Assembly (NCBI GenBank): GCA_037146775.1
Contig: JBAWWL010000002.1
Span: 262,554 to 326,553, forward strand
DNA length: 64,000 nucleotides
Source of the DNA: Candidatus Omnitrophota bacterium
Lineage (GTDB): Bacteria; Omnitrophota; Gorgyraeia; Duberdicusellales; 4484-171
Direction of reading: 5' to 3'
This document shows, piece by piece, positions 2,108 to 42,519 of this stretch. The notes beneath the pieces were generated by a model. The model searched no databases, was not told where the DNA came from, and was given only the letters and a program-made list of their open reading frames with translations. The position numbers and the translations under genes are program-made. Numbering within the stretch: position 1 is the stretch's first letter; every line of letters starts with the position of its first letter.

Positions 2108-2407
2108 ATGAAAGAAAAAGTAACCGCAATAGTTTTTGCGGCAGTTGAGATAATAAATCAACAGCTATCTAAAGATGAGCAGATAGATAAAGCTATGAAC
2201 ACGCCTTTGTTCTACTCTTCCGGTGGGTTAGATTCGTTAGGTATAATAAACCTTATTATGACCATAGAACAAAAAATTCAGGAAGATTTAGGGGTGAATA
2301 TAACTTTAGCCAACGAAAAAGCGTTATCTAGTCAGGACAGTCCTTTTAGGACAATAGGAAATTTGATTGATTATATTTCTTTGCTTTTAAATGAGAATAT
2401 AAAATGA
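2108..2407 (+). CDS. acyl carrier protein
   Basis: GGLDSLGIINLI contains the DSL phosphopantetheine-attachment serine motif; ATG at 2108 is preceded by GGAAGG (2095-2100); the ORF-track start at 2081 is probably an over-extension. Confidence 0.65.
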   Translation: MKEKVTAIVFAAVEIINQQLSKDEQIDKAMNTPLFYSSGGLDSLGIINLIMTIEQKIQEDLGVNITLANEKALSSQDSPFRTIGNLIDYISLLLNENIK

Positions 2408-3108
2408 ATAACTCGCAGGTAATGTTGATTACCGGCACTAGTAGGGGTATAGGCAAATTTTTAGCTAAGCACTATGTGCAAAGAGGTTTTTCTGTTATCG
2501 GCTGCAGCCGTCAATCAGTAGATTATAGTCTGAAGAATTATAGGCATTTTTCTCTGGATATTTGTAATGAAGATGACGTAAGAGAGATGTTTGTTGAAGT
2601 TACTAAAAGCTATAAGCATCTTGATGTTTTAATAAATAATGTGGGAATCATATCTATGAATTATGTTTATTTGACTTCGGCTAAGACAGTAAGAGACATC
2701 ATGGATACGAATTTTATCGGTACATTTATCTGCTGCCGGGAGGCAATTAAGATAATGCAACGGAATCGTTCAGGTAAAATTATAAATATTTCTAGCATTG
2801 CCGTTCCTTTGAGCGCGGCAGGGACTTCTGCGTATAGTGCTTCTAAGGCAGCGGTTGAACAGCTTTCAAAAGTTTTAGCAAAAGAGGTGGTATCGTATGG
2901 AATTGCTGTCAACACTTTAGGGTTATCTTTTGTTGAAGGTAGCGGTATGATTAAAGAAGTTGGAGAAAAAGCCGTTAAAAGTGCGCTGGAGAATACGGCC
3001 TCAAAAATCCCTATTACTTTTAACGATGTTGCGGTGGCTATGGATTCCTTAATCTTAGGTCAAAATAGTACAGCTACTGGCAAGATATCTTATTTGGGTG
3101 GCGTATAA
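2404..3108 (+). CDS. SDR-family oxidoreductase (3-oxoacyl-ACP reductase-like)
   Basis: N-terminal TGTSRGIGKFLA Rossmann motif and YSASKAAV catalytic Y-x3-K; overlaps the ACP stop. Confidence 0.75.
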   Translation: MNNSQVMLITGTSRGIGKFLAKHYVQRGFSVIGCSRQSVDYSLKNYRHFSLDICNEDDVREMFVEVTKSYKHLDVLINNVGIISMNYVYLTSAKTVRDIMDTNFIGTFICCREAIKIMQRNRSGKIINISSIAVPLSAAGTSAYSASKAAVEQLSKVLAKEVVSYGIAVNTLGLSFVEGSGMIKEVGEKAVKSALENTASKIPITFNDVAVAMDSLILGQNSTATGKISYLGGV

Positions 3109-4119
3109 ATGAAAGTAATCATAAAAGACATAGCATATTATTTGCCTCAGCGCGTAGTAACCAATGAAGAGCTATATAAAGAAAACCCAGGATGGAAGAC
3201 AGAAACTCTTGAAGAGCGCATAGGGGTAATGAAGCGTCATGTTGCCGGCGATGGTGAAACAGCTTTAGATTTAGCTTATCGGGCTTGCGAAGAAATTATC
3301 TCAAAGAATTCAGAGTTACCTAAGCTAATAGACGGAATTATTTTTTGTACGCAAAGTGGTGATCATGTTATGCCTTCTAATGCTTGTATTTTACACAAAA
3401 TGCTTAAACTGTCAGAAGAAGTGATTGCTTTTGATTTTAATTTAGCCTGTTCCGGATATATATATGGACTTGCGATAGTGCAAGGACTAATACTTAGCGG
3501 TATGGCAAAAAATATCTTGTTGGTGAATGCAGACACTTATTCTAAATATATTGCAAAGAATGATCGTTCGGTAAGAATGCTTTTTGGCGACGGAGCAGCC
3601 GTCTCTTGGATTAGTCTTTCTGGTTCCGGTAGCAGTATTATTGACATAATTTGTGCTACGGCCGGTCAATACTTTGATAAATTTATTATCCCTGCTGGAG
3701 GTTGTAGAATGCCAAAATCTGGCCGAACATCTGAGTTGTTAACCGACGAAAGCGGCAACTCCCGCACGTTAGAGAATATTCATATGGATGGTATGGGCAT
3801 TTTTTCTTTTGTCAATTCCAGAGTCCCCCGCCAGATTAAAAAAATTTTAACGCATAATAGATTGAACGTAACAGATATAAAATTATTTGTTTTTCATCAG
3901 GCAAGCAAAATGGCCTTAGATTCTCTTGGTTGCCTACTAGGTATTAATCCTGAAAAAGTATTCAAGAACCTCGGTGAAATAGGCAACACCGTATCAGCAT
4001 CTATCCCCATTGCCTTAAAAGATGCGTTAAATAGCGGTAAATTATCTAAGGGCGATAAAGTTTTACTTTCAGGGTTTGGTGTAGGTTTATCTTGGGGGGC
4101 GGCAATCATAGAAATATGA
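3109..4119 (+). CDS. 3-oxoacyl-ACP synthase III (FabH-like KAS III)
   Basis: ACSGYIYGL active-site Cys, FVFHQAS His and GNTVSASIPIAL Asn motif; about 335 aa, typical for KAS III. Confidence 0.75.
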   Translation: MKVIIKDIAYYLPQRVVTNEELYKENPGWKTETLEERIGVMKRHVAGDGETALDLAYRACEEIISKNSELPKLIDGIIFCTQSGDHVMPSNACILHKMLKLSEEVIAFDFNLACSGYIYGLAIVQGLILSGMAKNILLVNADTYSKYIAKNDRSVRMLFGDGAAVSWISLSGSGSSIIDIICATAGQYFDKFIIPAGGCRMPKSGRTSELLTDESGNSRTLENIHMDGMGIFSFVNSRVPRQIKKILTHNRLNVTDIKLFVFHQASKMALDSLGCLLGINPEKVFKNLGEIGNTVSASIPIALKDALNSGKLSKGDKVLLSGFGVGLSWGAAIIEI

Positions 4120-4238
4120 AGTTTTACGGATTTACAGCCGTAGTATTTTCTATTTCTTCGGCGGAGCGGAATCTACCGAAGTAAAAACAACGCATTCATC
4201 CATGGGCTTGCATCCGTGGTTTATGCGTAGGCGGATAA

Positions 4239-5192
4239 ATGGATAACAAGATAAAATGGCCTCACGGCAAGAATTTTGCTTTTACTATTTTTGATGATAC
4301 AGATAACTCGACTATAGCTAACACAAGAGACGTGTATGCATTTCTTTATGATTGCGGTTTTCTGACTACTAAATCTGTCTGGGTATTCGATAGCACTGAA
4401 AAATCGCAGGTTGGTAAGGAATGGACTGCTGGAGATACCTGTGACGACAAAGAATATGTACAATGGCTAAAAGATTTACAAAGCCTCGATTTTGAAATTG
4501 GACTTCATAGCGTTAGCACGCATAGATCGCGCAGAGATCGAGTGATCTATGGAATAGAAAGATTCCGTGATATTTTTGGCTATTATCCTCAATCAGCTTC
4601 GCAACATCTGGATTATCGCGAAAATGAATCCATGTATTGGGGTAACCGAAGGGTAAGCGGTTTTAATGAATATTTATATAACACCATTACCTTAAATCGT
4701 TTCAAGGGAAAATCAAAAGGGCATATTGAGAAGAGTGAATATTTTTGGGGTGATATTTGTAAGCAGCGAATTAAATTTATGCGCAATTTTGTTTTTAGCG
4801 ACATAAATACTCTTAAAACTTGTCCAGTTATGCCCTATCATGATGACGAGAGACCCTATGTTAATTATTGGTTTGCTTCTTCCGAGGGTCGAGATCTTAA
4901 GTCATACATTGAATGCATAAAAGAAAAGAATCAAGACAATTTAGAGGCTAGTGGCGGTGCTTGTATTGTGTACACTCATTTTGCAAGCGGTTTTTTTAAC
5001 CATGGTAAATTAGATTGTAATTTTAAGTTTCTTATGGAGAGGCTTAGTAAAAAAAATGGCTGGTTTGTGCCGGTTTCGACATTATTAGATTATCTTCTTA
5101 GAATAAAAGGCCATCAGGTTATTTCCAATACTGAAAAAAACAGGCTTGAGAGGAAATGGTTATGGCACAAAATAAGGCATGGAACTACGTAA
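4239..5192 (+). CDS. hypothetical protein, possibly polysaccharide deacetylase-like (CE4-like)
   Basis: FTIFDDTDNS and GLHSVSTH loosely resemble NodB motifs 1 and 2; weak. Confidence 0.3.
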   Translation: MDNKIKWPHGKNFAFTIFDDTDNSTIANTRDVYAFLYDCGFLTTKSVWVFDSTEKSQVGKEWTAGDTCDDKEYVQWLKDLQSLDFEIGLHSVSTHRSRRDRVIYGIERFRDIFGYYPQSASQHLDYRENESMYWGNRRVSGFNEYLYNTITLNRFKGKSKGHIEKSEYFWGDICKQRIKFMRNFVFSDINTLKTCPVMPYHDDERPYVNYWFASSEGRDLKSYIECIKEKNQDNLEASGGACIVYTHFASGFFNHGKLDCNFKFLMERLSKKNGWFVPVSTLLDYLLRIKGHQVISNTEKNRLERKWLWHKIRHGTT

Positions 5193-5195
5193 TTA

Positions 5196-6323
5196 GTGAT
5201 TCATATGGGAATAGAAATCAAACCCTACAGTGAAAATTTTATAGACAAGGTCAGAAGTTTTAACTTACGCTTAAAAAATGGGGGATTACTATTTAGCTTT
5301 CCTGTATCGAATATTCCTGAGTGGCTGCCGAAGATAGAAAATCGAAAGATTTATCAGGAATATTTTTTGGCCATAGAAAACAATTCGGAAGTAAGAGGGG
5401 CATATATTTTGAAACACCAGGAATTTATACTTAAAGACAAGGCGGTGTCCCTGGCGGATTATCAGCTGCCTATCTCAGAGGGTACGGTTAATAAATCGTA
5501 TAGTCTTATCGGGGTGCAACTATTAACCAATGCATTGAAGCGGCAACCATTGTTATTTGGCTTGGGTATGGGTAGCTATAAAGAACCATTGCCAAAGATG
5601 TTAAAAGCCGCGGGGTGGAGTTTATTTACCGTCCCTTTTTTCTTTAAGGTTTGCCGTCCTTTCAAATTTTTAAAGAATATTAATTTCATAAGAAAGAAAA
5701 AAATTATAAATATCTTTTTAGATTTAATTGCGATAACTGGTATGGGTTGGATTATAATAAAATTATTACAGCTTTTATTTGAAAAGATTAATCTTGTAAA
5801 CAGAAATATTTCCGTAGAAATAATTAATGATTTTTCTATTTGGGCAGATGAAGTTTGGAATGTGTCTAAAGGACAATATCATATGATAGCAGTGCGGGAT
5901 AGCACCGTGCTTAATATATTGTATCCAAAGGAAAATAATTCATTTATTCGTTTGAAAGTATTGCAGAATAATAAGGTTATCGGTTGGGCGATTGTTTTGG
6001 ATACTCCGATGATTAATCATAAACAGTTTGGGAATATGCGGGTTGGCTCTATAGTTGATTGTTTGGCCCTTACAGGCGAGGAATTTGAGGTAATTAAGTC
6101 CGCGGCTGGTTTTTTAGAAAAAAATGGCGTGGATATAATTGTTTCAAACCAGTTCCATTCGTTTTGGCGCAAAGCTCTCATTAGCAATGGTTTTCTCGAG
6201 GGTCCCTCTAATTTTATATTTGCAGCTTCAAGAAAATTAACCGAATTATTATATCCTCTTGGTGCTAACAAGTTTAAATTTCATATCAATAGAGGCGATG
6301 GTGATGGGCCGATACACCTTTGA
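5196..6323 (+). CDS. hypothetical protein
   Basis: 375-aa ORF in the operon frame with no recognisable motif. Confidence 0.3.
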   Translation: MIHMGIEIKPYSENFIDKVRSFNLRLKNGGLLFSFPVSNIPEWLPKIENRKIYQEYFLAIENNSEVRGAYILKHQEFILKDKAVSLADYQLPISEGTVNKSYSLIGVQLLTNALKRQPLLFGLGMGSYKEPLPKMLKAAGWSLFTVPFFFKVCRPFKFLKNINFIRKKKIINIFLDLIAITGMGWIIIKLLQLLFEKINLVNRNISVEIINDFSIWADEVWNVSKGQYHMIAVRDSTVLNILYPKENNSFIRLKVLQNNKVIGWAIVLDTPMINHKQFGNMRVGSIVDCLALTGEEFEVIKSAAGFLEKNGVDIIVSNQFHSFWRKALISNGFLEGPSNFIFAASRKLTELLYPLGANKFKFHINRGDGDGPIHL

Positions 6324-6392: not shown

Positions 6393-7667
6393 ATGCCATT
6401 TTTTCTCCTTATAATTTATATAATTGCCGTTTTTATTAGACCTCAGGATTCTATCTCATTTATGCAAGGGTTTCCTCTGGTCAATATTATAACCATACTG
6501 AATCTTTTGTTGGTTTTTATGGGGTTTTCGGCCAAGAAATTGAGTATTCCGCGAGCACCAGAAAATACACTTATGTTAGGATTCTTTTTTGCTATATTAA
6601 TGTCTCACGTAGCAAACACATATTTGGGAGGGTTGATTCTTTCGTTTCAGGAGTTCGGTAAAATTTTAATTTTCTATTTTCTGATAATAATTATTTTAGA
6701 TTCGGTAAATAAAATTAAAATTGTAAGCTGGCTTATTGTACTTTCATCAGTTTATATGGCAATTAATGGTATAATCCAGTTTTATGGGGGATCTGGCATA
6801 CCCGGGACAGCTCCTATCAATGATCACGGCGTAATGCGGATAATCGGCTTAGGAATTTTTTCCGACCCCAACGATTTAGCGCTTCTTTTTATTTTTACTT
6901 TCCCGTTAGTTTTAGCGTTTATTTTTGAAGGGAGAGGATTTTTTCATGCCACTATGGCTATTGTCTGCGGAATTTCGATTGTCTGGGCATTGTGGCTAAC
7001 TAACTCAAGAGGAGGATTATTGGCTTTTATCGTAGCCACAATAATGTTTTTTAGGCTTAGATTCAAGGGAATGAAATGGGTTATATTTGCCATGCTAGCT
7101 GTGGTTATTGCTGTTGCGTTTTTACCTTCCCGCCTTACCGCTGGTTTTTTTGATAAGTCATCTTATGAGCGCGTTATCTACTGGGGTTACGGTAATTGGG
7201 CTTTTAAGTCACATCCGATTTTTGGCGTAGGTTATAATATGCTTTGGCAGTATGCTGCGGATAAAGCTGCACATAATTCTTTTATCCAGTGCTACGCGGA
7301 ACTAGGAATTTTTGGATATTTATTTTGGATAGGCCTTATTTACATTATTTTATACGGTTTATGGAAATTGAGTCTTTACTATAAATCAAAGGCTTATTAT
7401 AAAAGTGACCTTTTTTTATTAGGTGAAGCAATATCTGCTGCTTTTTTTGGTTATTTAACTATCAGTTTATTCTTGAGCCGCACATACATTGTACCATTTT
7501 TTGTTTTTATTGCATTAGCGGTAAAGGTAAGGTTTGTGGCTACGCAAGGAAAATTCTTAGGTGGAGACCTTCTTCCTGCCTATCAAAACCGTAGGATCCT
7601 CGCTATCGGCGTATTAAGTATTCTATTTATGTATATCATGACGCGATTCTTGTTAACGAGGTTTTAA
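6393..7667 (+). CDS. O-antigen ligase/polymerase family membrane protein (Wzy/WaaL-like)
   Basis: Polytopic with >=10 hydrophobic segments; WALWLTNSRGGLLAFIVATIMFF resembles the O-antigen ligase-family periplasmic-loop signature. Confidence 0.6.
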   Translation: MPFFLLIIYIIAVFIRPQDSISFMQGFPLVNIITILNLLLVFMGFSAKKLSIPRAPENTLMLGFFFAILMSHVANTYLGGLILSFQEFGKILIFYFLIIIILDSVNKIKIVSWLIVLSSVYMAINGIIQFYGGSGIPGTAPINDHGVMRIIGLGIFSDPNDLALLFIFTFPLVLAFIFEGRGFFHATMAIVCGISIVWALWLTNSRGGLLAFIVATIMFFRLRFKGMKWVIFAMLAVVIAVAFLPSRLTAGFFDKSSYERVIYWGYGNWAFKSHPIFGVGYNMLWQYAADKAAHNSFIQCYAELGIFGYLFWIGLIYIILYGLWKLSLYYKSKAYYKSDLFLLGEAISAAFFGYLTISLFLSRTYIVPFFVFIALAVKVRFVATQGKFLGGDLLPAYQNRRILAIGVLSILFMYIMTRFLLTRF

Positions 7668-8922: not shown

Positions 8923-9615
8923 ATGATAAGAAAGAAGCTACCCGTATCAATTATTGTTCCTTGTAGAAATGAGGCAAAAAATCTAGAAATACTTCTTCCG
9001 CAGCTAGAAAGCATAGGAGAAGAGCTTATTGTTGTTGATGGTCACTCTCAGGATAATACTAAAGAGTTGGCAATGCGCTATTCCACAAAATTTGTTTTGG
9101 ATAACGGTAAAGGTAAGGGGGACGGTATTCGCGTGGGAATTGCTCACGCAACTAAAGATATCTGCGTGTTTTTAGATGCTGATCTTTCGCATGATCCTTT
9201 AGATATTCCTAAGATGGTCGAGCCGATTTTAACCGGCAAGGCGGATATAGTGTTAGGCTCGCGTATGCGCGGCGGCGGTGACGAGTTTATTGCTACCCCT
9301 CTTATGCTTATTCGACTTTTTGGTAATATGGGCTTGACTTGGTTGATAAATCTTAGATGTAATTCGGCATTGTCAGATAGCCAAAATGGATTTAGAGCAA
9401 TTAAAACATCTTTATTGAGGTCCATTAAACTTATTTCTAATAGGCATACGATTGAATTAGAGATGATTATGCGAGCCCTTCGTTTTGGTGCTCGTGTCGT
9501 AGAAGTACCCGCTCATGAATATCCGCGCAGGTTTGGTGATTCATCTCTTTCGTTAATTGAACAAGGATTTCTTTTTTTATTTGTCTATATTCGTGAGTGT
9601 TTTAGGCCGCTTTAA
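8923..9615 (+). CDS. GT2 polyprenyl-phosphate sugar synthase-like (DPM1/GtrB-like), soluble
   Basis: VSIIVPCRNEAKNLEILL...VVDGHSQDNT...FLDADLSHDP GT-A motifs; 230 aa. Confidence 0.65.
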   Translation: MIRKKLPVSIIVPCRNEAKNLEILLPQLESIGEELIVVDGHSQDNTKELAMRYSTKFVLDNGKGKGDGIRVGIAHATKDICVFLDADLSHDPLDIPKMVEPILTGKADIVLGSRMRGGGDEFIATPLMLIRLFGNMGLTWLINLRCNSALSDSQNGFRAIKTSLLRSIKLISNRHTIELEMIMRALRFGARVVEVPAHEYPRRFGDSSLSLIEQGFLFLFVYIRECFRPL

Positions 9616-9652
9616 TAAATATGTGGTTGATATATAACAGGGGGATGGGGCT

Positions 9653-10582
9653 ATGATTACTTTAGTTATACCATGTTTTAATGAACAAGAAAATCTGCCT
9701 TTACTTTATGAAAAAATTATAAAGGCAGCTGAAGAATGGAAGGAGCCGTTTGAGGTGATTATCATTGATGACGGTTCAAATGATTCTACGTGGGAGATAC
9801 TAAAACAATTTCATACCAAGGATGTCCGGTGGAAAGCTTTGCGATTTTCAAGGAATTTTGGCCATCAAAAAGCCATTTCAGCTGGCTTATTCTATGCTGG
9901 TGGCGATTGCGCAGTTATTTTAGATGCGGATTTGCAGGATTCTCCAGGAGAGGTACGTCGTTTTATAGAGAAATGGAAAGAAGGATACGAAGTTATCTAT
10001 GCGATACGCCTGAAGCGCAAAGAGAATTTTTTTAAAAGAGTAAGTTATAAGATTTTTTATAGAATACTGGGATGCCTGTCTGACATTAAAATTCCTTACG
10101 ATTCTGGCGATTTTTGCCTTATTGACCGTAAGGTTATAGATGTATTGAATAGTATCCGCGAGCAAGACCGTTTTGTGCGCGGTTTACGTGCGTGGATAGG
10201 CTTTCGCCAGGTTGGTATAAAATATGAGCGCAATATACGTCATGCCGGGAAACCAAAATTTACCTTGCGTAAGCTAAAGAACCTTGCCTTTTCCGGAATT
10301 TTTTCTTTCTCGATAGTGCCTTTGCAGATTGCTACTTATTTAGGGCTAATTATCTGCGCTACTACTTTTTTATTAGCTATCTTTTATTTTTTTAAGCATT
10401 TTTCAGTACAGCCACATTATATTTTGATAATTGCTTTTTTTCTGGGTGGCGCCCAATTGCTTTGCTTGGGTGTTCTGGGCGAGTATATAGGCCGTATATA
10501 TAACGAAGTAAGAAACCGGCCATTATGGATAATTAGAGATACGCTGGGTATCAATATAAAAAAGCACTTTAACAGCTTATGA
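9653..10582 (+). CDS. GT2 polyprenyl-phosphate glycosyltransferase (GtrB/ArnC-like) with C-terminal TM helices
   Basis: LVIPCFNEQENLP...IIDDGSNDST...ILDADLQDSP plus two C-terminal hydrophobic helices. Confidence 0.7.
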   Translation: MITLVIPCFNEQENLPLLYEKIIKAAEEWKEPFEVIIIDDGSNDSTWEILKQFHTKDVRWKALRFSRNFGHQKAISAGLFYAGGDCAVILDADLQDSPGEVRRFIEKWKEGYEVIYAIRLKRKENFFKRVSYKIFYRILGCLSDIKIPYDSGDFCLIDRKVIDVLNSIREQDRFVRGLRAWIGFRQVGIKYERNIRHAGKPKFTLRKLKNLAFSGIFSFSIVPLQIATYLGLIICATTFLLAIFYFFKHFSVQPHYILIIAFFLGGAQLLCLGVLGEYIGRIYNEVRNRPLWIIRDTLGINIKKHFNSL

Positions 10583-12360
10583 AAATTCGAATAAATAATT
10601 TTATTACGTGGCGTAAGTCATTTTTTGTTTTTGGAATATTTTTGATTTTTACAGCTATATTCCTTCCAGTAGATTATTTAGTAAATAACGCAATTTCTCC
10701 GCAGATTGCCCAAGAGATAAAAAATCAAGGTATTCCCGGCCGTATGTTAGCATTACAGAATCAATTTAGATTGGGGTTATTATTTTTACGTATTGCTTCT
10801 GTTTTGCTTGGTGGATGGTTGTTAGTTTTAGCCCGTTTCTGGAATTATTTAAAAAAATGGTCATTCGAGACGCTGATAAAAAAGCGCAAAGCTGACTATT
10901 TTGATTCTGATAGTATAGACCTAAGGAAAGAAATTATATTTCCAGGTATTTGTTTTATCTTAGTAATAATAATTTCTGTACCCATACTTTATAAAGGATT
11001 TGATCATTGTGAACTTACTAATTATTTAATGTTAGCTAAGAGAGGTCCGTTGGTTAGCATGGCTTGTCAAAATATGGAGTCTCGTGCCGGTCATCCTGGT
11101 TTTACAGTGGTAGAAAGTATTTTTGTAAAAATTTTAGGGGGTTCAGAAGCTACCGCGAGATTACCGGCTCTTATCTTTGGAGCCTTTGTTATGTTTCCGG
11201 TATATTTCATTGCTCGCAAGTATGGCCCGATTTCTTTTGCGAATTTAGTTTGTTTAGGACTAGCGGCAAACGGATTTTACCTTTTTTATAATACTTATGC
11301 CAGGGGCTACGCTTTTGCGTTAGCAGCGTATATGTTTTGTGTTGCTATAGTGCTTTCGATACGTTTACATCCAAACTGGAATAAATGGGTGTGGCTAGGT
11401 GTTTTTACTATTATTGCCTGTTATTCTCACCAAGGATCAGCGCTGTATCTTAGCTGCTTAATTTTTTTCCTTTTAATTGAACGATACAAAATGGGTGGCA
11501 TGAAATTTTTGGTGCAGCCGGCCATTACGTTAGGAACAGTTATTTTGATTCTATTTTTTCTCTATTCCGTAGCAATTCCTAGTGATTTAAAATATTTAAA
11601 AGAATTTTCAGTAACCAACTATTATCAATCTTACCATATTAACCCGCGTTTGCTTAAAGTTATGGTTGAATCTTGGTCCTGGTTGCGAGGCATGGTTTTT
11701 GTAGGGTGGATTCAGTTTAGTTTATCTACGATAGGAATGGTTTGGCTACTCCGCCGTCGCTTTTGGACTACGATATACTTAGTTGGCCCTGCTGTTATTG
11801 GTATTACAATAATCTGGTCACGGGAATTATATGTTTTTACCCGATATTTTTTGCATTTCTTACCGGTATATGTTTTACTCAGTGTTTTTCCTTTATGGCG
11901 AATTCCCACAAATATTTTAAAAATAAATCGTAGGGTAGCAGAAATATCTCTTGGGCTATTGCTGGTAATTTTTATGACAATATCATTATATCGTATATAT
12001 GCAATGGAGCGCTGTGGGGTGCGGGCTGCAGTTAGTGATGCGCGTAAGCTAATGAGTGCGAATGATCGGGTTATGGCAATCCTCGATGGATATATTACGG
12101 TTAGATATTACTATCCGGAAGTAGTTAATGGATATCGTCACACAAATTTTTGGAAGGAAATTAATAGCGAACAGCCCCCAGAATTTATTATCAATGTTCC
12201 TTATGTTGAGTTTGATATTCCTGGCGGGACTACTGCTATTTTAAAAAAGTATAATCTGGTAAAAAAATATCCGAGTTGGCTTGATGTCGATGACGATCAG
12301 GATTCAATATATCTATATAAATTAAAAATGAAAAATGAAAAACAAAGAATTAATAATTAA
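10579..12360 (+). CDS. polytopic membrane protein, putative GT-C-fold glycosyltransferase
   Basis: 593 aa with many hydrophobic segments; lies between a GtrB-like GT2 and a PMT/ArnT-like gene. Confidence 0.4.
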   Translation: MKIRINNFITWRKSFFVFGIFLIFTAIFLPVDYLVNNAISPQIAQEIKNQGIPGRMLALQNQFRLGLLFLRIASVLLGGWLLVLARFWNYLKKWSFETLIKKRKADYFDSDSIDLRKEIIFPGICFILVIIISVPILYKGFDHCELTNYLMLAKRGPLVSMACQNMESRAGHPGFTVVESIFVKILGGSEATARLPALIFGAFVMFPVYFIARKYGPISFANLVCLGLAANGFYLFYNTYARGYAFALAAYMFCVAIVLSIRLHPNWNKWVWLGVFTIIACYSHQGSALYLSCLIFFLLIERYKMGGMKFLVQPAITLGTVILILFFLYSVAIPSDLKYLKEFSVTNYYQSYHINPRLLKVMVESWSWLRGMVFVGWIQFSLSTIGMVWLLRRRFWTTIYLVGPAVIGITIIWSRELYVFTRYFLHFLPVYVLLSVFPLWRIPTNILKINRRVAEISLGLLLVIFMTISLYRIYAMERCGVRAAVSDARKLMSANDRVMAILDGYITVRYYYPEVVNGYRHTNFWKEINSEQPPEFIINVPYVEFDIPGGTTAILKKYNLVKKYPSWLDVDDDQDSIYLYKLKMKNEKQRINN

Positions 12361-15360: not shown

Positions 15361-15385
15361 GAGGGGTCGAATTGATTGACCCCTC
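15361..15385 (+). other. perfect 8-bp stem hairpin (GAGGGGTC-gaattgatt-GACCCCTC) between the GT4 gene and the GIY-YIG gene
   Basis: Read directly; no U-tract follows. Confidence 0.5.
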
Positions 15386-15774
15386 ATCCTGAGCGTAGCG
15401 AAGGATCTCTAACGGTGAGTAAAGATAAACATCAAGCCGGATATGTATACATCCTAACAAATAGAGGGAATTCGGTTTTGTATACTGGGGCCACAACCAA
15501 TTTGCTTAAAAGAGTTTTCCAGCACAGACAGAGATATCTATCTGGATTCACAAAGCGATATAATTTAAGCAAGTTGGCATATTACGAGGTCTTTATTGAT
15601 ATGGTCAGCGCTCGCGTAAGAGAGCGCAAGATAAAAGGCTGGAAGCGAGGGAGGAAGATAAGTTTAATAGAATCGATGAATCCGATGTGGGAAGATCTCT
15701 ATAATGGATTAGTAAGAGATCCTTCGTCCTTGCGGACTCAGGATGACCCCTTGCTTATTGAAAAAACACCCTAA
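15376..15774 (+). CDS. GIY-YIG nuclease family protein
   Basis: GYVYILTNRGNSVLYTGATTNLLKRVFQH is a GIY-YIG motif; the true start may be GTG near 15415, because the 5' end overlaps a hairpin. Confidence 0.65.
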   Translation: MTPHPERSEGSLTVSKDKHQAGYVYILTNRGNSVLYTGATTNLLKRVFQHRQRYLSGFTKRYNLSKLAYYEVFIDMVSARVRERKIKGWKRGRKISLIESMNPMWEDLYNGLVRDPSSLRTQDDPLLIEKTP

Positions 15775-15786
15775 GGGTTCAATTAT

Positions 15787-16950
15787 ATGAGTTTTATTAT
15801 TCTTTTATTAATCTTTTTATTTTTATTTTTTCTCACAACTATAATTCTGAAAAAGAAAATGCAATATTGGTTTTTTTCTTACGCTAAAACATTTTTTATC
15901 AAAAAAAATAGCACCAATAAACAAAAACCTACAGATATAATATTTTGTCTGGTAGATCATTTTGAGCCAAGTTTTAGAACTAAAGAGGTTACAGTGCAAA
16001 AAAGTAGAGTGGACCGATGGTTAGAAGAATTTCCTCTTTTTTCTGTAACACATCGTGATGGCGATGGTTGTATGCCCAAGCACACTTGGTTTTTCTCGCC
16101 GCATGAAGACACCGAAGATCATCTTGAGCGTCTGACTGGTCTTTGTAAACAAGGCTATGGAGAAATAGAATTACATATGCATCACGACCGTATTTTACCT
16201 TTTCCCGATACATCGGAGACTTTCGAGAGAAAAATCAGGGAAGCCACCGATAGGTACGCGTTGTTAGGCTTATTCGGAAAAGATAACCGTGATGATAAGC
16301 GTAAATTTGGTTTTGTCCACGGCGATTGGGCGCTAGATAATTCAAGAGGAGGAAAATTTTGCGGTATCAATAATGAGTTGCAAATTTTAGCAAAATGTGG
16401 ATGCTACGCTGATTTTACCTTTCCTTCTATTTGTGAATCGCAGCCGCAAAAAATTAATTCTATATATTATGCTTTCGACGATCCGCGGAGGCCAAAATCC
16501 TACGATAGGGGTATTTCGGTAAAGGTTGGGAAGAAAAAATGTGGTGATTTAATGATTATTCAAGGTCCTTTGGGTTTGCATTCAAAGCCCTACAGGCGCT
16601 GGCCGTTTATCGCTATAGAGTCTGCTAATATCTCTTTGACTGATTTACCTTATCCATCAAGGGTCGATTTTTGGGCCAAAACCGGGATAGGAGTGGAAGA
16701 TAAACAAGAATGGATATTCATAAAAGTGCATACCCATGGTGCGTATGAGCCTAATGCTGATGTGCTTTTGGGTGAGCATATGCATACAATGCATTCTTAT
16801 TTAGAAAGCAAATATAACGATGGAATAAATTTCAGATTGCATTATGTTACCGCGCGAGAGCTTTATAATATTGTTAAAGCAGCAGAGAGCGGAGAAATAG
16901 GAAATCCTAGCCAGTTTAGAGATTACTATATTGACAAGCCGCCGTTGTAG
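15787..16950 (+). CDS. hypothetical protein with N-terminal TM anchor
   Basis: 387-aa ORF; His/Asp-rich patches (DHFEP, HMHHD) suggest a metal-dependent hydrolase but no family could be assigned. Confidence 0.3.
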   Translation: MSFIILLLIFLFLFFLTTIILKKKMQYWFFSYAKTFFIKKNSTNKQKPTDIIFCLVDHFEPSFRTKEVTVQKSRVDRWLEEFPLFSVTHRDGDGCMPKHTWFFSPHEDTEDHLERLTGLCKQGYGEIELHMHHDRILPFPDTSETFERKIREATDRYALLGLFGKDNRDDKRKFGFVHGDWALDNSRGGKFCGINNELQILAKCGCYADFTFPSICESQPQKINSIYYAFDDPRRPKSYDRGISVKVGKKKCGDLMIIQGPLGLHSKPYRRWPFIAIESANISLTDLPYPSRVDFWAKTGIGVEDKQEWIFIKVHTHGAYEPNADVLLGEHMHTMHSYLESKYNDGINFRLHYVTARELYNIVKAAESGEIGNPSQFRDYYIDKPPL

Positions 16951-20074: not shown

Positions 20075-20824
20075 ATGATGAGTGAGCCAAAGTATACTGA
20101 TAATTTCTATCAAGACCTGATTAATAGTTCTCATAAGTCTGCCGCTAAGATTGTTCCTCTAGTTATGGATTTAGTTGCGCCAAAGTCGGTTGTCGATGTG
20201 GGATGTGGGGTTGGAGTGTGGTTATCTATCTTTCGCAAACATGGCGTGGAAGACTTTTTGGGTATAGATGGCTCATGGGTTAATAAAAAGTACCTCCAGA
20301 TTCCCGCCGACAGGTTTTTAGCTCACGATTTAAGGTTACCTCTCACAGTTAACAGAAGATTTGACCTGGTGGTGTCCCTGGAGGCTGCAGAACACGTACC
20401 GTCAGAATGTGCCGAAATTTTTATTAACAGCCTTGTTAGTTTTGGGCCAGTTGTTCTTTTCTCTGCGGCAATTCCCTCGCAGGGAGGCATAGGTCACATT
20501 AATGAACAATGGCCTGATTATTGGGCGAAATACTTTCGTATAAAGGGGTATGTCGTTGTTGATTATTTACGAGGGGCAATTTGGAATGAGAAGGTTTCGC
20601 CGATATACGCTCAAAATATTTTACTCTTTATTGATGAGAAATATCTTAAGGGTCAGCCGGCTTTAGCGGAAGCGTATAAGAAAACAGATGTTGCAACTTT
20701 GTGCCGTGTGCATCCGGAATTTTATGCATATCGAATTAATCCCGAAAACATGTCGTTACGAGAATTATTGCACGCTTTTCCTGCTGTCTTAAGAGAGTAT
20801 ATAGTGCGTAAACTAAAAAGATGA
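20075..20824 (+). CDS. class I SAM-dependent methyltransferase
   Basis: VVDVGCGVGVW motif I; ATG at 20075 follows the asnB stop; the ORF-track start at 20003 is an over-extension. Confidence 0.6.
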   Translation: MMSEPKYTDNFYQDLINSSHKSAAKIVPLVMDLVAPKSVVDVGCGVGVWLSIFRKHGVEDFLGIDGSWVNKKYLQIPADRFLAHDLRLPLTVNRRFDLVVSLEAAEHVPSECAEIFINSLVSFGPVVLFSAAIPSQGGIGHINEQWPDYWAKYFRIKGYVVVDYLRGAIWNEKVSPIYAQNILLFIDEKYLKGQPALAEAYKKTDVATLCRVHPEFYAYRINPENMSLRELLHAFPAVLREYIVRKLKR

Positions 20825-21695
20825 AATATTCTTCCTTGGTTTCGGCGATACAGTATTACGGCTATCCATTCCCCAATCATTTCGGCAAATGGTGGTTGCA
20901 TGCGCGATTGCGTAAAGTTTTTAAGATTACGATTAACGAGGATATGGTGGTTGAGCGTGGTGGTTTACGTTGGATTCTTAATCCTTCTGATTATGTCCAA
21001 TCCGAACTTTTTTGGTTGGGGTTGAGGGATAGATGGAATAGCTATCATGTAAAAAATATTATTAAACCGGCAAATACTATTTTAGATATTGGTGCTAATT
21101 TTGGTTATTATTCTATCATTTGTGCATCTTCTTTGAAAGGGAACTGCCGAGTTTATGCTTTCGAGCCCAATTCACCTTCGTTTAATCGTCTGAAGAAGAA
21201 CATTGAGCTCAACTCTCTGGAGGGTTCTGTTACGGCCGCATGTGTGTAGGTTTTGCAAATACCAACTCAACAGCATATATATCTGAGCCAGTTGGTAATA
21301 GCGGAGCGGCAATCATTGTTAATAAGAAAGGAGATAGAAGTGTTACGCTTTATAGGCTGGATGATTTTTGTTGCGATAGGAAAATCGATAAGATAGATTT
21401 TTTGAAAATTGATGTTGAAGGTTTTGAGCGATATGTTTTAGAGGGAGGGAAAGAAACATTAAAAAAATCCAGACCGGTGATGTTAATTGAATTAAATCCT
21501 GTCGCATTGGCAAAAAATAGCCAGTCGGTCCTTGAGCTCGTTGAGTTTATAAAACATAATGGATATGTATTATATGAGGTAATGAGGACAAAACTTAAAT
21601 TACTCACGCATCTGCCCGGCGGTGAAGATCATATAGATGCGTTTTGTTTTCCCAGGGAAAAGATAGAGCCATTTAAAAAAGAAGGTGTAATATGA
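20821..21695 (+). pseudogene. FkbM-family methyltransferase, split by a frameshift at a (TG)n run
   Basis: The first ORF, ending at 21249, has ILDIGANFGYYSII; the second, starting at 21240, has IDFLKIDVEGFERYVLEGG; together they make about 290 aa, typical for FkbM. The break lies in tgtgtgt at 21241-21247. Confidence 0.55.
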
Positions 21696-22414
21696 AAAAC
21701 AAAACTTTTGTGCAGAAAGTGAAAAATGGTCAGCCGCCGTTTTATTCTCTTATTAAATCTGCAGTTTTATTTATTTTAAACTTCAGGATTCCTTTGTTCT
21801 GGCCGCTGACATGGTTTTATAGAGCATTGTATTTCTTTCATGTCTTTCTGAGAGAGTCCGTGGTAGTTCTCTTAAAAATAATTTATTTTGAGCCAATGAT
21901 TCGGGCTGTATGTGTCAAGGTTGGTCGAAACTTACGTTTAGAAAAGTTGCCGTATATAGTGGGCAATGGTTCAATTGAACTTGGCGATAATGTACGTATC
22001 TCCGGCCGTATAGACATCGGTTTTAATAATCGTTTTGGGCACACGCCTCAATTTATCGTAGGAAACAATGTTTTTATCGGGTGCCTCTGTGGTTTTGCTG
22101 CAGCAAAGAAAATAGAAATTGGTAATAACTGCTATCTTGCTTCAGGGGTTAAGATTTTTGATAATGACGGGCATCCTTTAGATCCCCAAAAGAGAAGACA
22201 GGGTGAACCCGTATCTATTGAAGACGTACAATCGGTAAAGTTATGCGATAATGTTTGGGTTGGAACAGGAGGGGTTATTCTAAAAGGAGTTACTATAGGA
22301 GAGAATTCAGTTGTAGGTGCCGGTTCCATTATCACTAAAGATGTCCCGGCAAATACTATCGTTGCTGGTAACCCCGCAAGAATCATAAAGGTAATTAACC
22401 AAGATGCTTCGTAA
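21692..22414 (+). CDS. hexapeptide-repeat (LbH) acyl/acetyltransferase
   Basis: NVWVGTGGVILKGVTIGENSVVGAGSIITKDVPANTIVAGNPARIIK are hexapeptide repeats. Confidence 0.7.
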   Translation: MKNKTFVQKVKNGQPPFYSLIKSAVLFILNFRIPLFWPLTWFYRALYFFHVFLRESVVVLLKIIYFEPMIRAVCVKVGRNLRLEKLPYIVGNGSIELGDNVRISGRIDIGFNNRFGHTPQFIVGNNVFIGCLCGFAAAKKIEIGNNCYLASGVKIFDNDGHPLDPQKRRQGEPVSIEDVQSVKLCDNVWVGTGGVILKGVTIGENSVVGAGSIITKDVPANTIVAGNPARIIKVINQDAS

Positions 22415-26444: not shown

Positions 26445-27578
26445 ATGAAAACGATACCGGTAAGCGAACCGCTGATACTGGGGAAAGAGCTTAAGTATGC
26501 GCAACAGGCAATTGAATCAGGCTGGATTTCTTCTGAGGGAGAATTTATAAATAGATTTGAAAAAGATTTTGCGCAATATATTGGGAAAAAATATGCTGTT
26601 GCGGTAAATAATGGCACTAATGCTCTCATCTTGGCCTTACGGGTATTAGACCTTCCTAAGGAAAGCGAAGTAATTATCCCTACCTTTACTATAATTTCAT
26701 GTGCGCTTTCTTGCATATATAATAACTTAATTCCAGTATTTATAGATTGCGATAAAAGAACGCAGACCATGGACGTTTCTAAGATTGAAGAGAGGATAAG
26801 CAAAAAGACCAAAGCAATAATGCCGGTACATATATACGGCCATCCGGCTGATATGAATATGGTTTTAAAGGTTGCTAAAAAACATAACCTTTGTGTAATT
26901 GAGGATTTCGCTGAGGCCATTGGTTCGTTATATAAAGGCAGAAAATGTGGTAGCTTCGGAGACATAAATTGCACAAGTTTTTACGGTAATAAGCTTATCA
27001 CGACAGGCGAAGGCGGAATGTGTTTAACCGATAACAAAATCTTTGCGGAGAAACTGAGGAGATTGCGCAATTTAGGTTTTATCCCCCAAGAGAGGTTCGT
27101 TCACTATGATTTGGGCTTTAATTTTAGGATAACGAATGTCCAGTCCGCCATAGGTTGCGCTCAGTTAGAGAGAATAGAGGAGCATGTTAAAAGGAAAGTA
27201 TGGATAGCCAACACATACAACCGGGCATTAAACAAATTGCAGCAAAAAGGCTTTATAAGCTTACCTGTCGAAGAAACTTGGGCTAAAAATACTTATTGGA
27301 TGTATACGATAGTATTGAATGAAAAATTTGGAGTAAAAGCAAAAGAAGTGATAGGGAAATTGAGGAAGAAAAATATTCAGGCAAGGCCATTCTTTTATCC
27401 TTTACATCTTCAGCCTGCTTTTAAGAAATTGCCTTGGTATAAAAAAGAAAATCTTCCGGTAAGTGAGAAATTATATGAATATGGTTTTTATCTTCCTTCG
27501 GGATTAACCCTCAAAAAAGAAGATATAGGAAGGGTTTCGTTTGCCCTAGAAGAGGTTTTACATGGTTTTTGCAAGTGA
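26445..27578 (+). CDS. DegT/DnrJ/EryC1/StrS-family PLP-dependent sugar aminotransferase
   Basis: GWISSEGEFINRFEKDFAQYIGKKYAVAVNNGTNAL...FYGNKLITTGEGG (the Lys in NK is the PLP-binding lysine). Confidence 0.8.
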   Translation: MKTIPVSEPLILGKELKYAQQAIESGWISSEGEFINRFEKDFAQYIGKKYAVAVNNGTNALILALRVLDLPKESEVIIPTFTIISCALSCIYNNLIPVFIDCDKRTQTMDVSKIEERISKKTKAIMPVHIYGHPADMNMVLKVAKKHNLCVIEDFAEAIGSLYKGRKCGSFGDINCTSFYGNKLITTGEGGMCLTDNKIFAEKLRRLRNLGFIPQERFVHYDLGFNFRITNVQSAIGCAQLERIEEHVKRKVWIANTYNRALNKLQQKGFISLPVEETWAKNTYWMYTIVLNEKFGVKAKEVIGKLRKKNIQARPFFYPLHLQPAFKKLPWYKKENLPVSEKLYEYGFYLPSGLTLKKEDIGRVSFALEEVLHGFCK

Positions 27579-30479: not shown

Positions 30480-31958
30480 ATGCAGGTAGAGCATAATTCT
30501 TTACACACCGTTATTAGGATACAAGCCTTAGAATCTGTAAGGTGGACTTTTTTAGCCGAAGTCATCTCGCGGTTAATACAACCAATAGTTACTTTGATTC
30601 TTGCTCGCATTTTGTTACCAGAAGATTTTGGCCTTATTAGCATAGCAATGATTGTTATTGGGCTTGCTCAGCAATTCCAAGACTTTGGATTCGGGAAAAC
30701 ATTAATTCAGCGAGAAAATGAAATAGAGAAATCTGCTAACATAATTTTTTTATTAAATATTGCGTTTTCATTTATTCTGTATGGAATAATTTTCATTATC
30801 GCCCCTTTGGTCGCAAAGTTTTTTCATAATCAAAACGCAACTATTGTATTACGAATATTAAGCCTGCAAGTTATTTTGATTAGTTTTAGTATTGTTCAAC
30901 AGGCGTTACTTAGAAGAAATTTTAAATTTAAGGAGCTTTTTTTTATTAGAATTATTTCAGCATTATTCCCTGGTTTTGTTTCGATAGCCTTAGCCCTGTC
31001 AGGTTTCGGCGTATGGGCTTTAGTCTTTGGTGCGATAGCTAGTTCGGTTTTGCAAGCCTATCTTTTATGGAAATTAAGTTTATGGAGACCTAGAATATGT
31101 TTTGATTTTTCTTTGGCTTGGGAATTATTCCATTTTAGCAAATGGATAAGCTTAGAGATGTTTTTTGGATGGCTAATACTTTGGGGAGATTCTATAATAC
31201 TTGGTTATTTTCTTGGCGTAAAGGATTTGGGTATTTATCGTGTAGGGATAGCATGTTTGATATTAGTCTTTGATGTTATTTTTAATCCTTTACTGCCAGT
31301 ACTATTTTCCTTTTTTTCAAGATTGCAGCATGATGCAAAACGATTAAGACAGGAGTTTATCGCGATAAATAGGTTGGTGGCTTTAGTGTCATTACCACTA
31401 GGTGCAGGGTTATTATTTTTTGCACCCACTATTTCTCTTATGGTATTCGGACAAAAATGGTTAGGAATCGACATGGTTATTGGTTTGCTTGGTATTATGT
31501 ATGGTGTTGGATGGCTTGTAGGTATTAATCCAGAAATATATCGTGCTATAGGTAGACCAGATATACAGCCAAAATTATTAATGATAAGCGTATTATTTTA
31601 TATTCCGGTTTACATAGTTTTTGCGCGCTATGGGCTTTTCCAATTCTGCCTAGCAAGATTGGCATTGGCCATATTAATGATACCGTTTCATTTATGGATT
31701 TGTAGTAAGGTCATGAACATTGCTATATTCAAACTAGTACAAAATATGCTTCGTCCATCAGCCGGGGTCTTAATTGCATTAGGGTTAGTTTATCTTACTG
31801 ACAAGTTTATATTTTTAGGAACTTTTATTTGGTATCAGAATTTGCTCGCAATTTTATTATACTTGGCATTTTATATATTTCTTATGTGGATATTTGATAG
31901 AAAATTTATCCGAATAATCTATGTGCTGGCTAAAACAGTTATGGTTAATTTATCCTAA
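30480..31958 (+). CDS. oligosaccharide flippase (MOP/Wzx family)
   Basis: 492 aa with about 12-14 TM segments in a polysaccharide locus. Confidence 0.6.
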   Translation: MQVEHNSLHTVIRIQALESVRWTFLAEVISRLIQPIVTLILARILLPEDFGLISIAMIVIGLAQQFQDFGFGKTLIQRENEIEKSANIIFLLNIAFSFILYGIIFIIAPLVAKFFHNQNATIVLRILSLQVILISFSIVQQALLRRNFKFKELFFIRIISALFPGFVSIALALSGFGVWALVFGAIASSVLQAYLLWKLSLWRPRICFDFSLAWELFHFSKWISLEMFFGWLILWGDSIILGYFLGVKDLGIYRVGIACLILVFDVIFNPLLPVLFSFFSRLQHDAKRLRQEFIAINRLVALVSLPLGAGLLFFAPTISLMVFGQKWLGIDMVIGLLGIMYGVGWLVGINPEIYRAIGRPDIQPKLLMISVLFYIPVYIVFARYGLFQFCLARLALAILMIPFHLWICSKVMNIAIFKLVQNMLRPSAGVLIALGLVYLTDKFIFLGTFIWYQNLLAILLYLAFYIFLMWIFDRKFIRIIYVLAKTVMVNLS

Positions 31959-40788: not shown

Positions 40789-41151
40789 GTGGAAGAGAAG
40801 ATAAAAACTTTTAAGGATCTAAGAATCTGGCAAAAGGCGATGGAGATCGTTAAAGATATTTACCAGGTAACCAACTCTTTTCCAAAAGAAGAGCTTTATG
40901 GTTTAACATCCCAGATGCGAAGATGTGCGGTGTCTCTTGCTTCGAATATTGCCGAGGGTTTTAAGAGATATCACAATAAAGAGTACAAACAATTTCTACA
41001 TATTATGTTAGGATCTGCGGCTGAATTAGAAACGCAGCTACTAATATCAGAAGAACTTAGATACATTAACAAGGAAGAAACGGAAAAAATATGTGAGAAA
41101 TTAGAGCATCTTTCGAGGATGACCACAGTTCTTATCCGTAAGCTTAAGTAA
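40789..41151 (+). CDS. four-helix-bundle protein (23S rRNA intervening-sequence protein family)
   Basis: 120 aa; DLRIWQKAMEIVKDIYQVT...SQMRRCAVSLASNIAEGF is the family signature; GTG start with a GAAGGA RBS. Confidence 0.65.
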   Translation: MEEKIKTFKDLRIWQKAMEIVKDIYQVTNSFPKEELYGLTSQMRRCAVSLASNIAEGFKRYHNKEYKQFLHIMLGSAAELETQLLISEELRYINKEETEKICEKLEHLSRMTTVLIRKLK

Positions 41152-42389: not shown

Positions 42390-42519
42390 TATGTCGTACA
42401 TTGTACATAGTACAAATAAACCCTAAACACTAAACTCTAAATCCTAAATAAATTCAAAATCACAAACTAGAAATTTCAAACTTAAAACAAGATTATTGCA
42501 TATTGGAGGTAGTAAATAT
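42390..42519. repeat. intergenic repeat block (AGTAnnn then YYCTAAA 7-mer arrays)
   Basis: tacatagtatgtcgtacattgtacatagtacaaataaaccctaaacactaaactctaaatcctaaataaattcaaaatcacaaac. Confidence 0.65.

Follow-up and report, generated by a model that had tools for sequence, protein, structure and literature searches.

Why does a bacterial polysaccharide locus carry its own acyl carrier protein (ACP), its own ketoreductase and its own condensing enzyme? This question is raised by a 64,000-nucleotide stretch of contig JBAWWL010000002.1 (assembly GCA_037146775.1, positions 262,554 to 326,553 of the forward strand) from a Candidatus Omnitrophota bacterium, which is referred to here as the window. At 2108-4119 it encodes an ACP, a short-chain dehydrogenase/reductase (SDR) and a beta-ketoacyl-ACP synthase III (KAS III), with the genes of a GT4 (32-1216) and a GT2 (1207-2079) glycosyltransferase upstream. 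An earlier note on this DNA had placed the trio between glycosyltransferase genes, and the positions of the open reading frames (ORFs) as well as the Pfam and NCBIfam families of their products bear this out. Our analysis suggests, with a probability of roughly 55%, that the trio is part of a five-gene "N-acyl swap" module on the plus strand (2108-6323), in which a short 3-hydroxyacyl group built on the module's own ACP would replace the N-acetyl group on an amino sugar of the polysaccharide. The two further genes encode the proteins p317, with a CE4 deacetylase fold, and p375, with a tandem GNAT fold (Table 1).

The scores of the three proteins against family models set them apart from the type II fatty acid synthase (FAS II) of the cell. 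The ACP gene begins with the ATG at 2108, and AAGGAAGG stands just ahead of it. Its product stays below the gathering threshold (GA) of Pfam PP-binding (18.4 bits, GA 20.8) and does not reach TIGR00517, the AcpP equivalog model (23.6 bits, cut-off 70.45). In an alignment of AcpP with six orthologues from related loci the Asp-Ser of the phosphopantetheine motif is invariant, and the protein falls in a subfamily of its own, whose members measure 97-103 aa and have two insertions compared with AcpP. The SDR scores 148.6 bits (E = 2e-43) against its Pfam family, its translation contains the TGxxxGIG, NNVG and YxxxK motifs, and its best solved relatives are FabG proteins (E = 1e-28). Its best NCBIfam match, the FabG equivalog TIGR01830, is nevertheless not reached (134.2 bits, cut-off 297.75), and it is likewise far under the cut-offs of the remaining FabG models. 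Both Pfam domains of the KAS III score above GA (PF08545, E = 3e-20, and PF08541, E = 3e-30); it passes the broad beta-ketoacyl-ACP synthase 3 subfamily model NF006829 (260.2 versus 249) and fails the fabH model TIGR00747 (239.8 bits versus 292.1). Since the ACP and the SDR lie far under the AcpP and FabG cut-offs and the KAS III fails the FabH model, the trio is predicted to be a dedicated acyl-supply module and not the housekeeping AcpP/FabG/FabH set, as the earlier note had held.

That the trio is instead the organism's own FAS II initiation module, lying in a glycan locus by chance, is hardly credible. The broad subfamily model passed by the KAS III would fit such a role, but none of fabD, fabF, fabZ, fabI and plsX was found among the scanned ORFs of the window, which comprised all ORFs of at least 120 aa except a few overlapping or antisense ones. 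Moreover, a 5.9-Mb genome and large contigs from distant phyla have the same gene trio in their glycan loci, with 59-66% identity of the KAS III across distant loci and 77% in the closest relative (locus L013). The three genes are tightly packed. The earlier note had described them as coupled by start/stop overlaps at 2404 and 3108; a true ATGA overlap is present at the ACP/SDR junction (2404-2407), whereas the SDR and KAS III genes merely abut (TAA at 3106-3108, ATG at 3109-3111).

With its catalytic triad intact, the KAS III is predicted to be a genuine condensing enzyme: Cys114, His263 and Asn293 do not vary among 35 relatives, and they align to C112, H244 and N274 of the Escherichia coli enzyme. 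A KAS III-like acyltransferase of the CerJ/ChlB6 type was also considered for this protein and was rejected because of the intact Cys-His-Asn triad. Its identity to E. coli FabH is 29%, and its clade has a 16-residue insertion of its own as well as Met88 at the position of Phe87 in E. coli FabH. The best match in the PDB is 3gwa, a non-canonical Burkholderia protein (1e-69); other FabH structures including that of E. coli score between 1e-36 and 1e-44.

Downstream of the trio the earlier note had seen a putative deacetylase. For p317 this holds at the level of the fold, while no Pfam (PF01522 included) or NCBIfam match was obtained at E <= 0.01. Its AlphaFold (AF2) model, calculated from a 44-sequence alignment, has a predicted local distance difference test score (pLDDT) of 92.7, and the top Foldseek matches are 3rxz (3.6e-6), ArnD (8t0j, second-best, 3.5e-5), WbmS (3hft), PdaC and PgdA, with TM-scores of 0.5-0.58. 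At the positions of the CE4 motifs D19, D20, H90, P199, Y200 and H247 are invariant and H95 is present in 86% of the sequences; a profile alignment of low probability brings the FDD and GxH motifs into register with their counterparts in a CE4 protein that Pfam recognises. The modelled structure thus points to a CE4 deacetylase fold and to a putative de-N-acetylase. We collected 1787 relatives of p317, and all named ones are annotated as "hypothetical". L013, the closest relative, lacks the spacer between the KAS III and p317 genes (Table 1), its two genes overlapping instead. At 4124-4143 the spacer of the window contains a weak terminator-like site; the promoter and terminator scan returned no more sites than shuffled sequences did, so operon boundaries are not defined by it.

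The p375 gene starts 12 nt past the stop codon of p317, and its product matches no Pfam (GNAT clan included) or NCBIfam model. An exhaustive profile search yielded 1,711 family representatives at 50% identity; the p375 and p317 families comprise about 1,800-2,000 proteins each, and the named members are all "hypothetical". With the AF2 model (pLDDT 92.4, 44-sequence alignment) as the query, Foldseek returned 242 PDB matches at E <= 1e-3. The top ones are the Eis-like GNATs 2i00 and 2hv2 together with N-myristoyltransferases (NMTs), at E ~1e-10 over ~365 columns and a TM-score of ~0.5, and the GNAT fold is duplicated as in NMT, Eis and FemX. At the sequence level two profile searches against PDB sequences gave nothing significant, that with p375 reaching only AAC(2') at E ~0.7, and a tblastn search of plasmids with p375 gave no match.

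The strongest clue to the donor of p375 comes from fusion proteins. In P0443 (1311 aa) and P0434 an AMP-binding domain, an FkbM methyltransferase domain and a PP-binding domain are followed by a C-terminal p375 domain, and next to the P0443 gene lie genes for Wzy, a 4'-phosphopantetheinyl transferase (PPTase) and an acyl-CoA dehydrogenase. Because the p375 domain stands directly behind a phosphopantetheine carrier domain, the donor of this family is likely carrier-bound. Judged from its modelled fold, its adjacent position and these fusions, p375 is likely the cognate acyltransferase of the trio; the earlier note had proposed to look for such an enzyme nearby and had missed this candidate next door. 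Another fusion protein, P0369, has a FemAB/Acetyltransf_6 domain ahead of its p375 domain.

Is the arrangement peculiar to this locus? Relatives of the KAS III number in the hundreds at 57-77% identity and were found in Acidobacteria, Phycisphaerae, Planctomycetia, Elusimicrobia, Omnitrophota and one metagenome-assembled genome (MAG) of a Woesearchaeota archaeon. The neighbourhoods compared here represent eight lineages of the ACP-SDR-KAS III cassette; most were collected protein by protein, and a scan of genome contigs with the KAS III gave three loci. The order ACP-SDR-KAS III is kept in every locus for which the upstream flank was at hand (L002, L005, L006/7, L008/9, L013, L016 and L017), with ACPs of 71-103 aa and SDRs of 234-251 aa. 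The KAS III proteins are 59-77% identical across these loci, which belong to Planctomycetia, Elusimicrobia, Omnitrophota and others, and the SDR orthologues 44-59%. ACP orthologues occupy the same position at 35-45% identity in L002, L005, L006 and L008 and at 69% in L013. All of the loci are glycan loci, with genes for glycosyltransferases, for Wzx/Wzy/Wzz or for NeuB and CMP-sugars. This distribution in glycan loci of distant phyla points to a mobile accessory cassette. The ACP-ketoreductase-KAS III combination as a widely spread unit is new.

Six of the eight lineages have a deacetylase-type gene (CE4 or YdjC) no more than about three genes away from the cassette, and five have a GNAT-type gene for a protein of 312-383 aa at such a distance. 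Several of these GNAT-type proteins exceed the Pfam GNAT thresholds. In L017, for example, the order is ACP, SDR, a gene without assignment, KAS III, GNAT, CE4 and a GT-C glycosyltransferase (TMEM260_N). BLASTP detected no significant similarity between p375 and the GNAT-like neighbours of the cassettes in L005 and L008, and hhalign of p375 with the cassette GNAT neighbours gave probabilities of 24-43%. We therefore regard the GNAT neighbours of the other cassettes as analogous partners and not as proven homologues.

Some cassettes vary in composition. An extra gene between those for the SDR and the KAS III encodes a protein with a metallo-beta-lactamase fold, possibly a thioesterase, in L016 (5364-6011) and a 155-aa protein without family match in L017 (5517-5984). 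On the 3.8-kb contig JAHWHQ010000112.1 of the Candidatus Woesearchaeota MAG, which was binned as archaeal (DPANN), a KAS III gene (62% identity) is followed by genes for an AMP ligase and a CE4 deacetylase (L003). The presence of this cassette-type KAS III on a DPANN contig reflects either horizontal transfer or a binning error. Relatives of the KAS III on plasmids reach at most 44% identity, and the best one lies in a context resembling nonribosomal peptide synthetase (NRPS) clusters: on plasmid NZ_CP097152.1 of Deinococcus sp. QL22 (L015, 493628-508620) a KAS III relative with 44% identity stands beside an ACP and a 361-aa GNAT, together with an NRPS adenylation protein, a thioester reductase and an aminotransferase. 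The KAS III-ACP-GNAT trio of L015 occurs in a secondary-metabolite-like rather than a glycan context.

The five genes can travel together. In the closest relative, L013, the same five-gene block is found at another place in the locus, after Wzy, GT4 and GT2 genes, which argues that the block moves as a unit. The p317/p375 pair occurs in L013 and also in L010 and L011 (52% and 50% identity). In the latter two (L010, 6373-14111; L011, 4104-10047) the pair lies beside genes for an 80-aa ACP with a WDSVGH motif, an AMP-binding ligase, a DegT aminotransferase and a split transketolase; LuxE and LuxC follow the ligase in L010, and L011 ends within the ligase gene. The ACP set of L010 and L011 forms another type of predicted acyl-supply module and calls to mind the tetronate genes of Vibrio cholerae. 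The pairing of the cassette with two unannotated families, apparently a deacetylase and a carrier-dependent transferase, is new.

From these observations the following pathway can be proposed. The FabD of the cell, which is not encoded in the window, would malonylate the dedicated ACP, and the KAS III would join a short acyl-CoA, most simply acetyl-CoA, to malonyl-ACP. The SDR would then reduce the 3-oxo group to give a short 3-hydroxyacyl-ACP, which in the case of an acetyl primer would be 3-hydroxybutanoyl-ACP. As the module is devoid of a dehydratase, an enoyl reductase and an elongating KAS, the chain is expected to stop at this stage. p317 would strip the N-acetyl group from an N-acetylhexosamine (HexNAc) residue of the repeat unit or its precursor, and p375 would move the 3-hydroxyacyl group from the ACP onto the amine thus exposed. 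The resulting polysaccharide would carry an N-(3-hydroxyacyl) amino sugar rather than an N-acetylated one. Possible acceptors are nucleotide sugars, lipid-linked intermediates and the polymer. The ArnD match of p317, the genes for polyprenyl-phosphate GT2-like and GT-C proteins downstream and the GT-C gene in L017 give a weak hint at a polyprenyl-phosphate-linked sugar. With regard to the beta-hydroxyacyl group attached to a sugar that the earlier note had envisaged, our best reading is the same.

That note had, however, spoken of a lipid module and had suggested that the product may be an acylated glycan or glycolipid. In a glycolipid pathway the trio would prime the dedicated ACP, housekeeping FAS II would elongate the chain, as with NodF/NodE and AcpXL, and p375 would N-acylate the deacetylated sugar with a long chain, so that the locus would make a lipoglycan or glycolipid anchor in the manner of a Nod factor or a lipid-A-like lipo-oligosaccharide. 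The combination of deacetylase, acyltransferase and ACP does follow the logic of NodB/NodA/NodF and of LpxC/LpxD, so that the lipo-oligosaccharide logic of the earlier note fits the neighbouring genes, and NMTs, which handle C14 acyl groups, are among the top fold matches of p375. The likeness to NMT is nevertheless one of tandem-GNAT architecture only, and acetyltransferases of the Eis type score equally. In addition, KAS III enzymes initiate chains and do not elongate them, a dedicated ketoreductase without dehydratase and enoyl reductase argues for a stop at the 3-hydroxy stage, and the presence of Wzx and Wzy indicates that the locus makes a repeat-unit polymer. We consider a lipid anchor unlikely and a short 3-hydroxyacyl decoration the likelier product; with one KAS III and one ketoreductase, the term lipid module was probably an overstatement.

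The amine might also arise without any deacetylation. The locus contains a LegC/PseC-like DegT aminotransferase gene and a hexapeptide-repeat transferase gene (Table 1), so that an amino sugar made by the former could be acylated by p375 or by the latter, comparable to the PglD-like WfpG, with p317 serving an unrelated role. Flavobacterium psychrophilum provides a precedent for this route, L006, L010, L011 and L013 have DegT genes close to the cassette or to the p317/p375 pair, and a p317 homologue stands alone in L014. The hexapeptide protein however resembles the Maa/WbbJ and not the NeuD/PglD type, and its gene is 15 kb away from the cassette. The deacetylase-type genes adjoining the cassette in six of eight lineages, as well as the close spacing of p317 and p375 here and their pairing elsewhere, also speak against this explanation, which we regard as rather improbable. 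Finally, the 3-hydroxyacyl group could be esterified to a sugar hydroxyl, similar to the 3-hydroxybutanoyl esters on some rhizobial exopolysaccharides. The data do not fix an N- versus an O-linkage, and GNAT-fold enzymes can O-acylate; yet the repeated co-location with de-N-acetylase-type genes and the closest folds of p375, which are those of N-acyltransferases, render O-acylation quite improbable.

Several points weigh against the N-acyl swap itself. We infer the primer, the chain length and the acceptor, and the starter and the chain length are guesses; in view of Met88 in the KAS III pocket and of the 16-residue insertion, a starter other than acetyl-CoA may be used. The likeness of p317 and p375 to CE4 and GNAT proteins is one of fold only (TM ~0.5), without a Pfam match, and profile comparisons of the two with the CE4 and GNAT neighbours of other cassettes are weak (probability 21-43%). 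An AMP ligase takes the place of the GNAT in two cassettes (L003 and L016). A homologue of p375 occurs without a visible ACP in L012, and one of p317 without p375 or an ACP in L014, so the pairing of the two is not obligatory. The DegT protein could supply an amine without deacetylation, and neither FabD nor a PPTase is encoded nearby.

On a broader scale, p317 and p375 might represent an unrecognised and widespread pair of a CE4-like de-N-acetylase and a carrier-dependent tandem-GNAT N-acyltransferase. This pair would exchange the acetyl group of HexNAc for acyl groups from interchangeable ACP modules: KAS III plus ketoreductase, AMP ligase plus LuxE/LuxC, or an in-cis fusion of adenylation and peptidyl carrier protein domains. 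The acceptor may be a polyprenyl-phosphate-linked sugar that is then moved outside the cytoplasm by a GT-C enzyme, i.e. a route of the Arn/NaxD type with added re-acylation. We put this generalisation forward tentatively, as a possibility rather than as an expectation.

The module is embedded in one long plus-strand polysaccharide locus, which extends from the start of the window to about 42.4 kb. At least a dozen glycosyltransferase genes, many of them GT2 or GT4, lie within 1-42 kb, accompanied by genes for an AsnB-like amidotransferase, radical-SAM enzymes, many methyltransferases and a CpsB-type phosphatase. A WecB (UDP-GlcNAc 2-epimerase) passes its equivalog model, which brings GlcNAc/ManNAc chemistry into play. 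Speculatively, the GT2 and GT-C genes at 8923-12360 are possible downstream partners of the module.

Table 1. Coordinates of the module and of selected features of the surrounding locus (positions in the window)
Feature	Position	Strand	Remarks
Dedicated acyl carrier protein	2108..2407	+	99 aa, LDSLG phosphopantetheine site
Classical SDR, predicted 3-oxoacyl-ACP reductase	2404..3108	+	234 aa, adh_short
KAS III (FabH-like) condensing enzyme	3109..4119	+	336 aa, ACP_syn_III and ACP_syn_III_C
KAS III/p317 spacer	4120..4238	+	119 nt, three hairpins, minimum free energy -37.3 kcal/mol, z = -2.4
p317, CE4-fold (NodB/ArnD-like) putative sugar de-N-acetylase	4239..5192	+	uncharacterised family without Pfam model
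p375, tandem-GNAT-fold putative carrier-protein-dependent N-acyltransferase	5205..6323	+	372 aa from ATG 5205, alternative GTG 5196
Wzy	6393-7667	+	glycan locus
GT2, polyprenyl-phosphate sugar synthase-like	8923-9615 and 9653-10582	+	best matches AglJ, PpgS, PgfS, ArnC, all under cut-off
GT-C/PMT_2-like membrane glycosyltransferase	10579-12360	+	PMT_2 25.6 bits versus GA 26.1
Hexapeptide-repeat transferase, Maa/WbbJ-type O-acetyltransferase-like	21692-22414	+	not NeuD/PglD type
DegT aminotransferase, LegC/PseC-like	26445-27578	+	328 bits
Wzx	30480-31958	+	glycan locus

Further genes of the locus are noted here for completeness. An ORF with a GIY-YIG nuclease domain (15376-15774, 132 aa) lies amid the glycosyltransferase genes, and the next one (15787-16950, 387 aa) is without any family match. 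Two overlapping ORFs at 20821-21249 and 21240-21695 match the two halves of an FkbM-type methyltransferase (Methyltransf_21, 1-58 and 89-172), which suggests a frameshift, a pseudogene or a fault in the assembly. The ORF at 40789-41151, close to the locus end, encodes a 23S rRNA intervening sequence protein (PF05635, a bAvd-like four-helix bundle); two copies of a PF05635 gene also adjoin the lone p317 homologue of L014 (5727-6606), in a Brocadiaceae genome. A papain-family cysteine protease gene (Peptidase_C1, 42496-43263) directly follows that of the CpsB-like phosphatase at the locus end. Neither the Rfam nor the tRNA scan of the window gave a match.

Beyond about 44 kb lie an AbiEii toxin and a helix-turn-helix (HTH) antitoxin (44209-45449) as well as a TolC/HlyD/MacB pump. 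The GC content is about 0.36 in the locus and 0.44-0.47 past the toxin-antitoxin pair (~46000). This rise just after the AbiEii/HTH boundary raises the possibility that horizontal transfer brought in the low-GC glycan locus. The PlsC-like gene at 50131, which the earlier note had connected with the trio, was rejected as an acyl partner: it passes the model of an ordinary 1-acylglycerol-3-phosphate acyltransferase (106.8 versus 102.95) and lies about 8 kb past the locus end, beyond the toxin-antitoxin pair, the pump and the GC rise. On account of this outer position and of its ordinary model match it is not counted in the glycan locus. Overall, the earlier interpretation was mostly right, with three corrections: the link to PlsC is to be dropped, the neighbouring transferase is to be added, and "lipid" was probably too strong a word. 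Behind the PlsC-like gene lie genes for a B12-binding radical-SAM enzyme (51625-53067) and an ornithine cyclodeaminase (53146-54141), and the PlsC-like protein has weak matches to lyso-ornithine-lipid acyltransferases of the OlsA type, a hint of aminolipid chemistry unrelated to the glycan locus.

Bacterial surface polysaccharides commonly bear non-acetyl N-acyl groups, for example 3-hydroxybutanoyl and dihydroxyhexanoyl, which shape antigenicity and phage recognition, and the responsible genes are mostly unassigned. The locus and its relatives offer a concrete, testable gene set, consisting of a compact ACP-ketoreductase-KAS III supplier and two large unannotated families. If the proposal is true, about 1,700 clusters of the p375 family and a comparable number of the p317 family, now "hypothetical", would obtain a function, and glycan structures could be predicted better from metagenomes of uncultured phyla, among them Omnitrophota, Planctomycetota and Elusimicrobiota. 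Should the acyl group be a short decoration only, the result would be an incremental extension of known O-antigen tailoring.

The concept of acyl decoration of sugars is already known, as the wfp, Nod, Lpx, tetronate and flagellin-island systems show; a literature search for 3-hydroxybutanoyl together with acyl carrier protein returned nothing relevant. In lipid A synthesis LpxC deacetylates the sugar and LpxD re-acylates it from R-3-hydroxyacyl-ACP; the folds of these enzymes are unrelated to those of p317 and p375, and the housekeeping ACP is used. In the ArnC/ArnD/ArnT and the Francisella FlmF2/NaxD/FlmK routes an amino sugar is first deacetylated or deformylated, and the amine is left free. 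The structural match of p317 to ArnD and the ArnC/PpgS-like GT2 and GT-C genes downstream recall these routes, whereas the pathway proposed for the window includes a re-acylation.

ACP-centred acyl modules in glycan loci are exemplified by the tetronate genes VC0248-VC0252 (wbeK-O) of V. cholerae O1 (PMC3441752) and by the ACP/LuxE/LuxC/CaiC/FabG genes of enterobacterial flagellin glycosylation islands (PMC4875605). Like the module proposed here, the tetronate system N-acylates an amino sugar, perosamine, and the set of ACP, AMP ligase and LuxE/LuxC in L010 and L011 resembles this type. In the V. cholerae and flagellin-island systems the acyl group is supplied by a ligase and a reductase, without a deacetylase, whereas in the window it would come from condensation by a KAS III.

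NodF and NodE of rhizobia are a dedicated ACP and a ketosynthase, NodE being of the KAS I/II type and serving long polyunsaturated chains. In the synthesis of the rhizobial Nod factor, deacetylation by NodB precedes acyl transfer from the ACP by NodA (PMC5080398). As proposed for the window, GlcNAc is thus de-N-acetylated and re-N-acylated from a dedicated ACP with the help of a dedicated condensing enzyme, and only this logic is common to both. No ORF of the window has a Pfam match to NodA, the family of which differs from p375; the Nod system acts with a KAS I/II synthase on a free chitooligosaccharide signal, whereas the window combines a KAS III with a Wzx/Wzy polymer.

The closest precedent is found in the O-polysaccharide of F. 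psychrophilum, for which wfpC/wfpE (KAS), wfpD (ACP), wfpF (ketoreductase) and wfpG (a PglD-like transferase) were proposed to provide the N-3,5-dihydroxyhexanoyl group on Qui2NAc4N; the group itself is chemically established, and the wfp pathway is a prediction (PMC6519341). The likeness to the window is one of gene functions as described, not of compared sequences. The two KAS genes of F. psychrophilum are consistent with two condensations and a C6 chain, whereas the window has one KAS III; the wfp transferase, a hexapeptide protein resembling PglD, uses the product of an aminotransferase, and in its place the window offers the tandem-GNAT protein p375 and the CE4-like p317. In both cases, a dedicated ACP, a KAS and a ketoreductase are encoded within a polysaccharide locus of the Wzx/Wzy type, and in both a short hydroxyacyl amide on an amino sugar is the established or, for the window, the proposed product.

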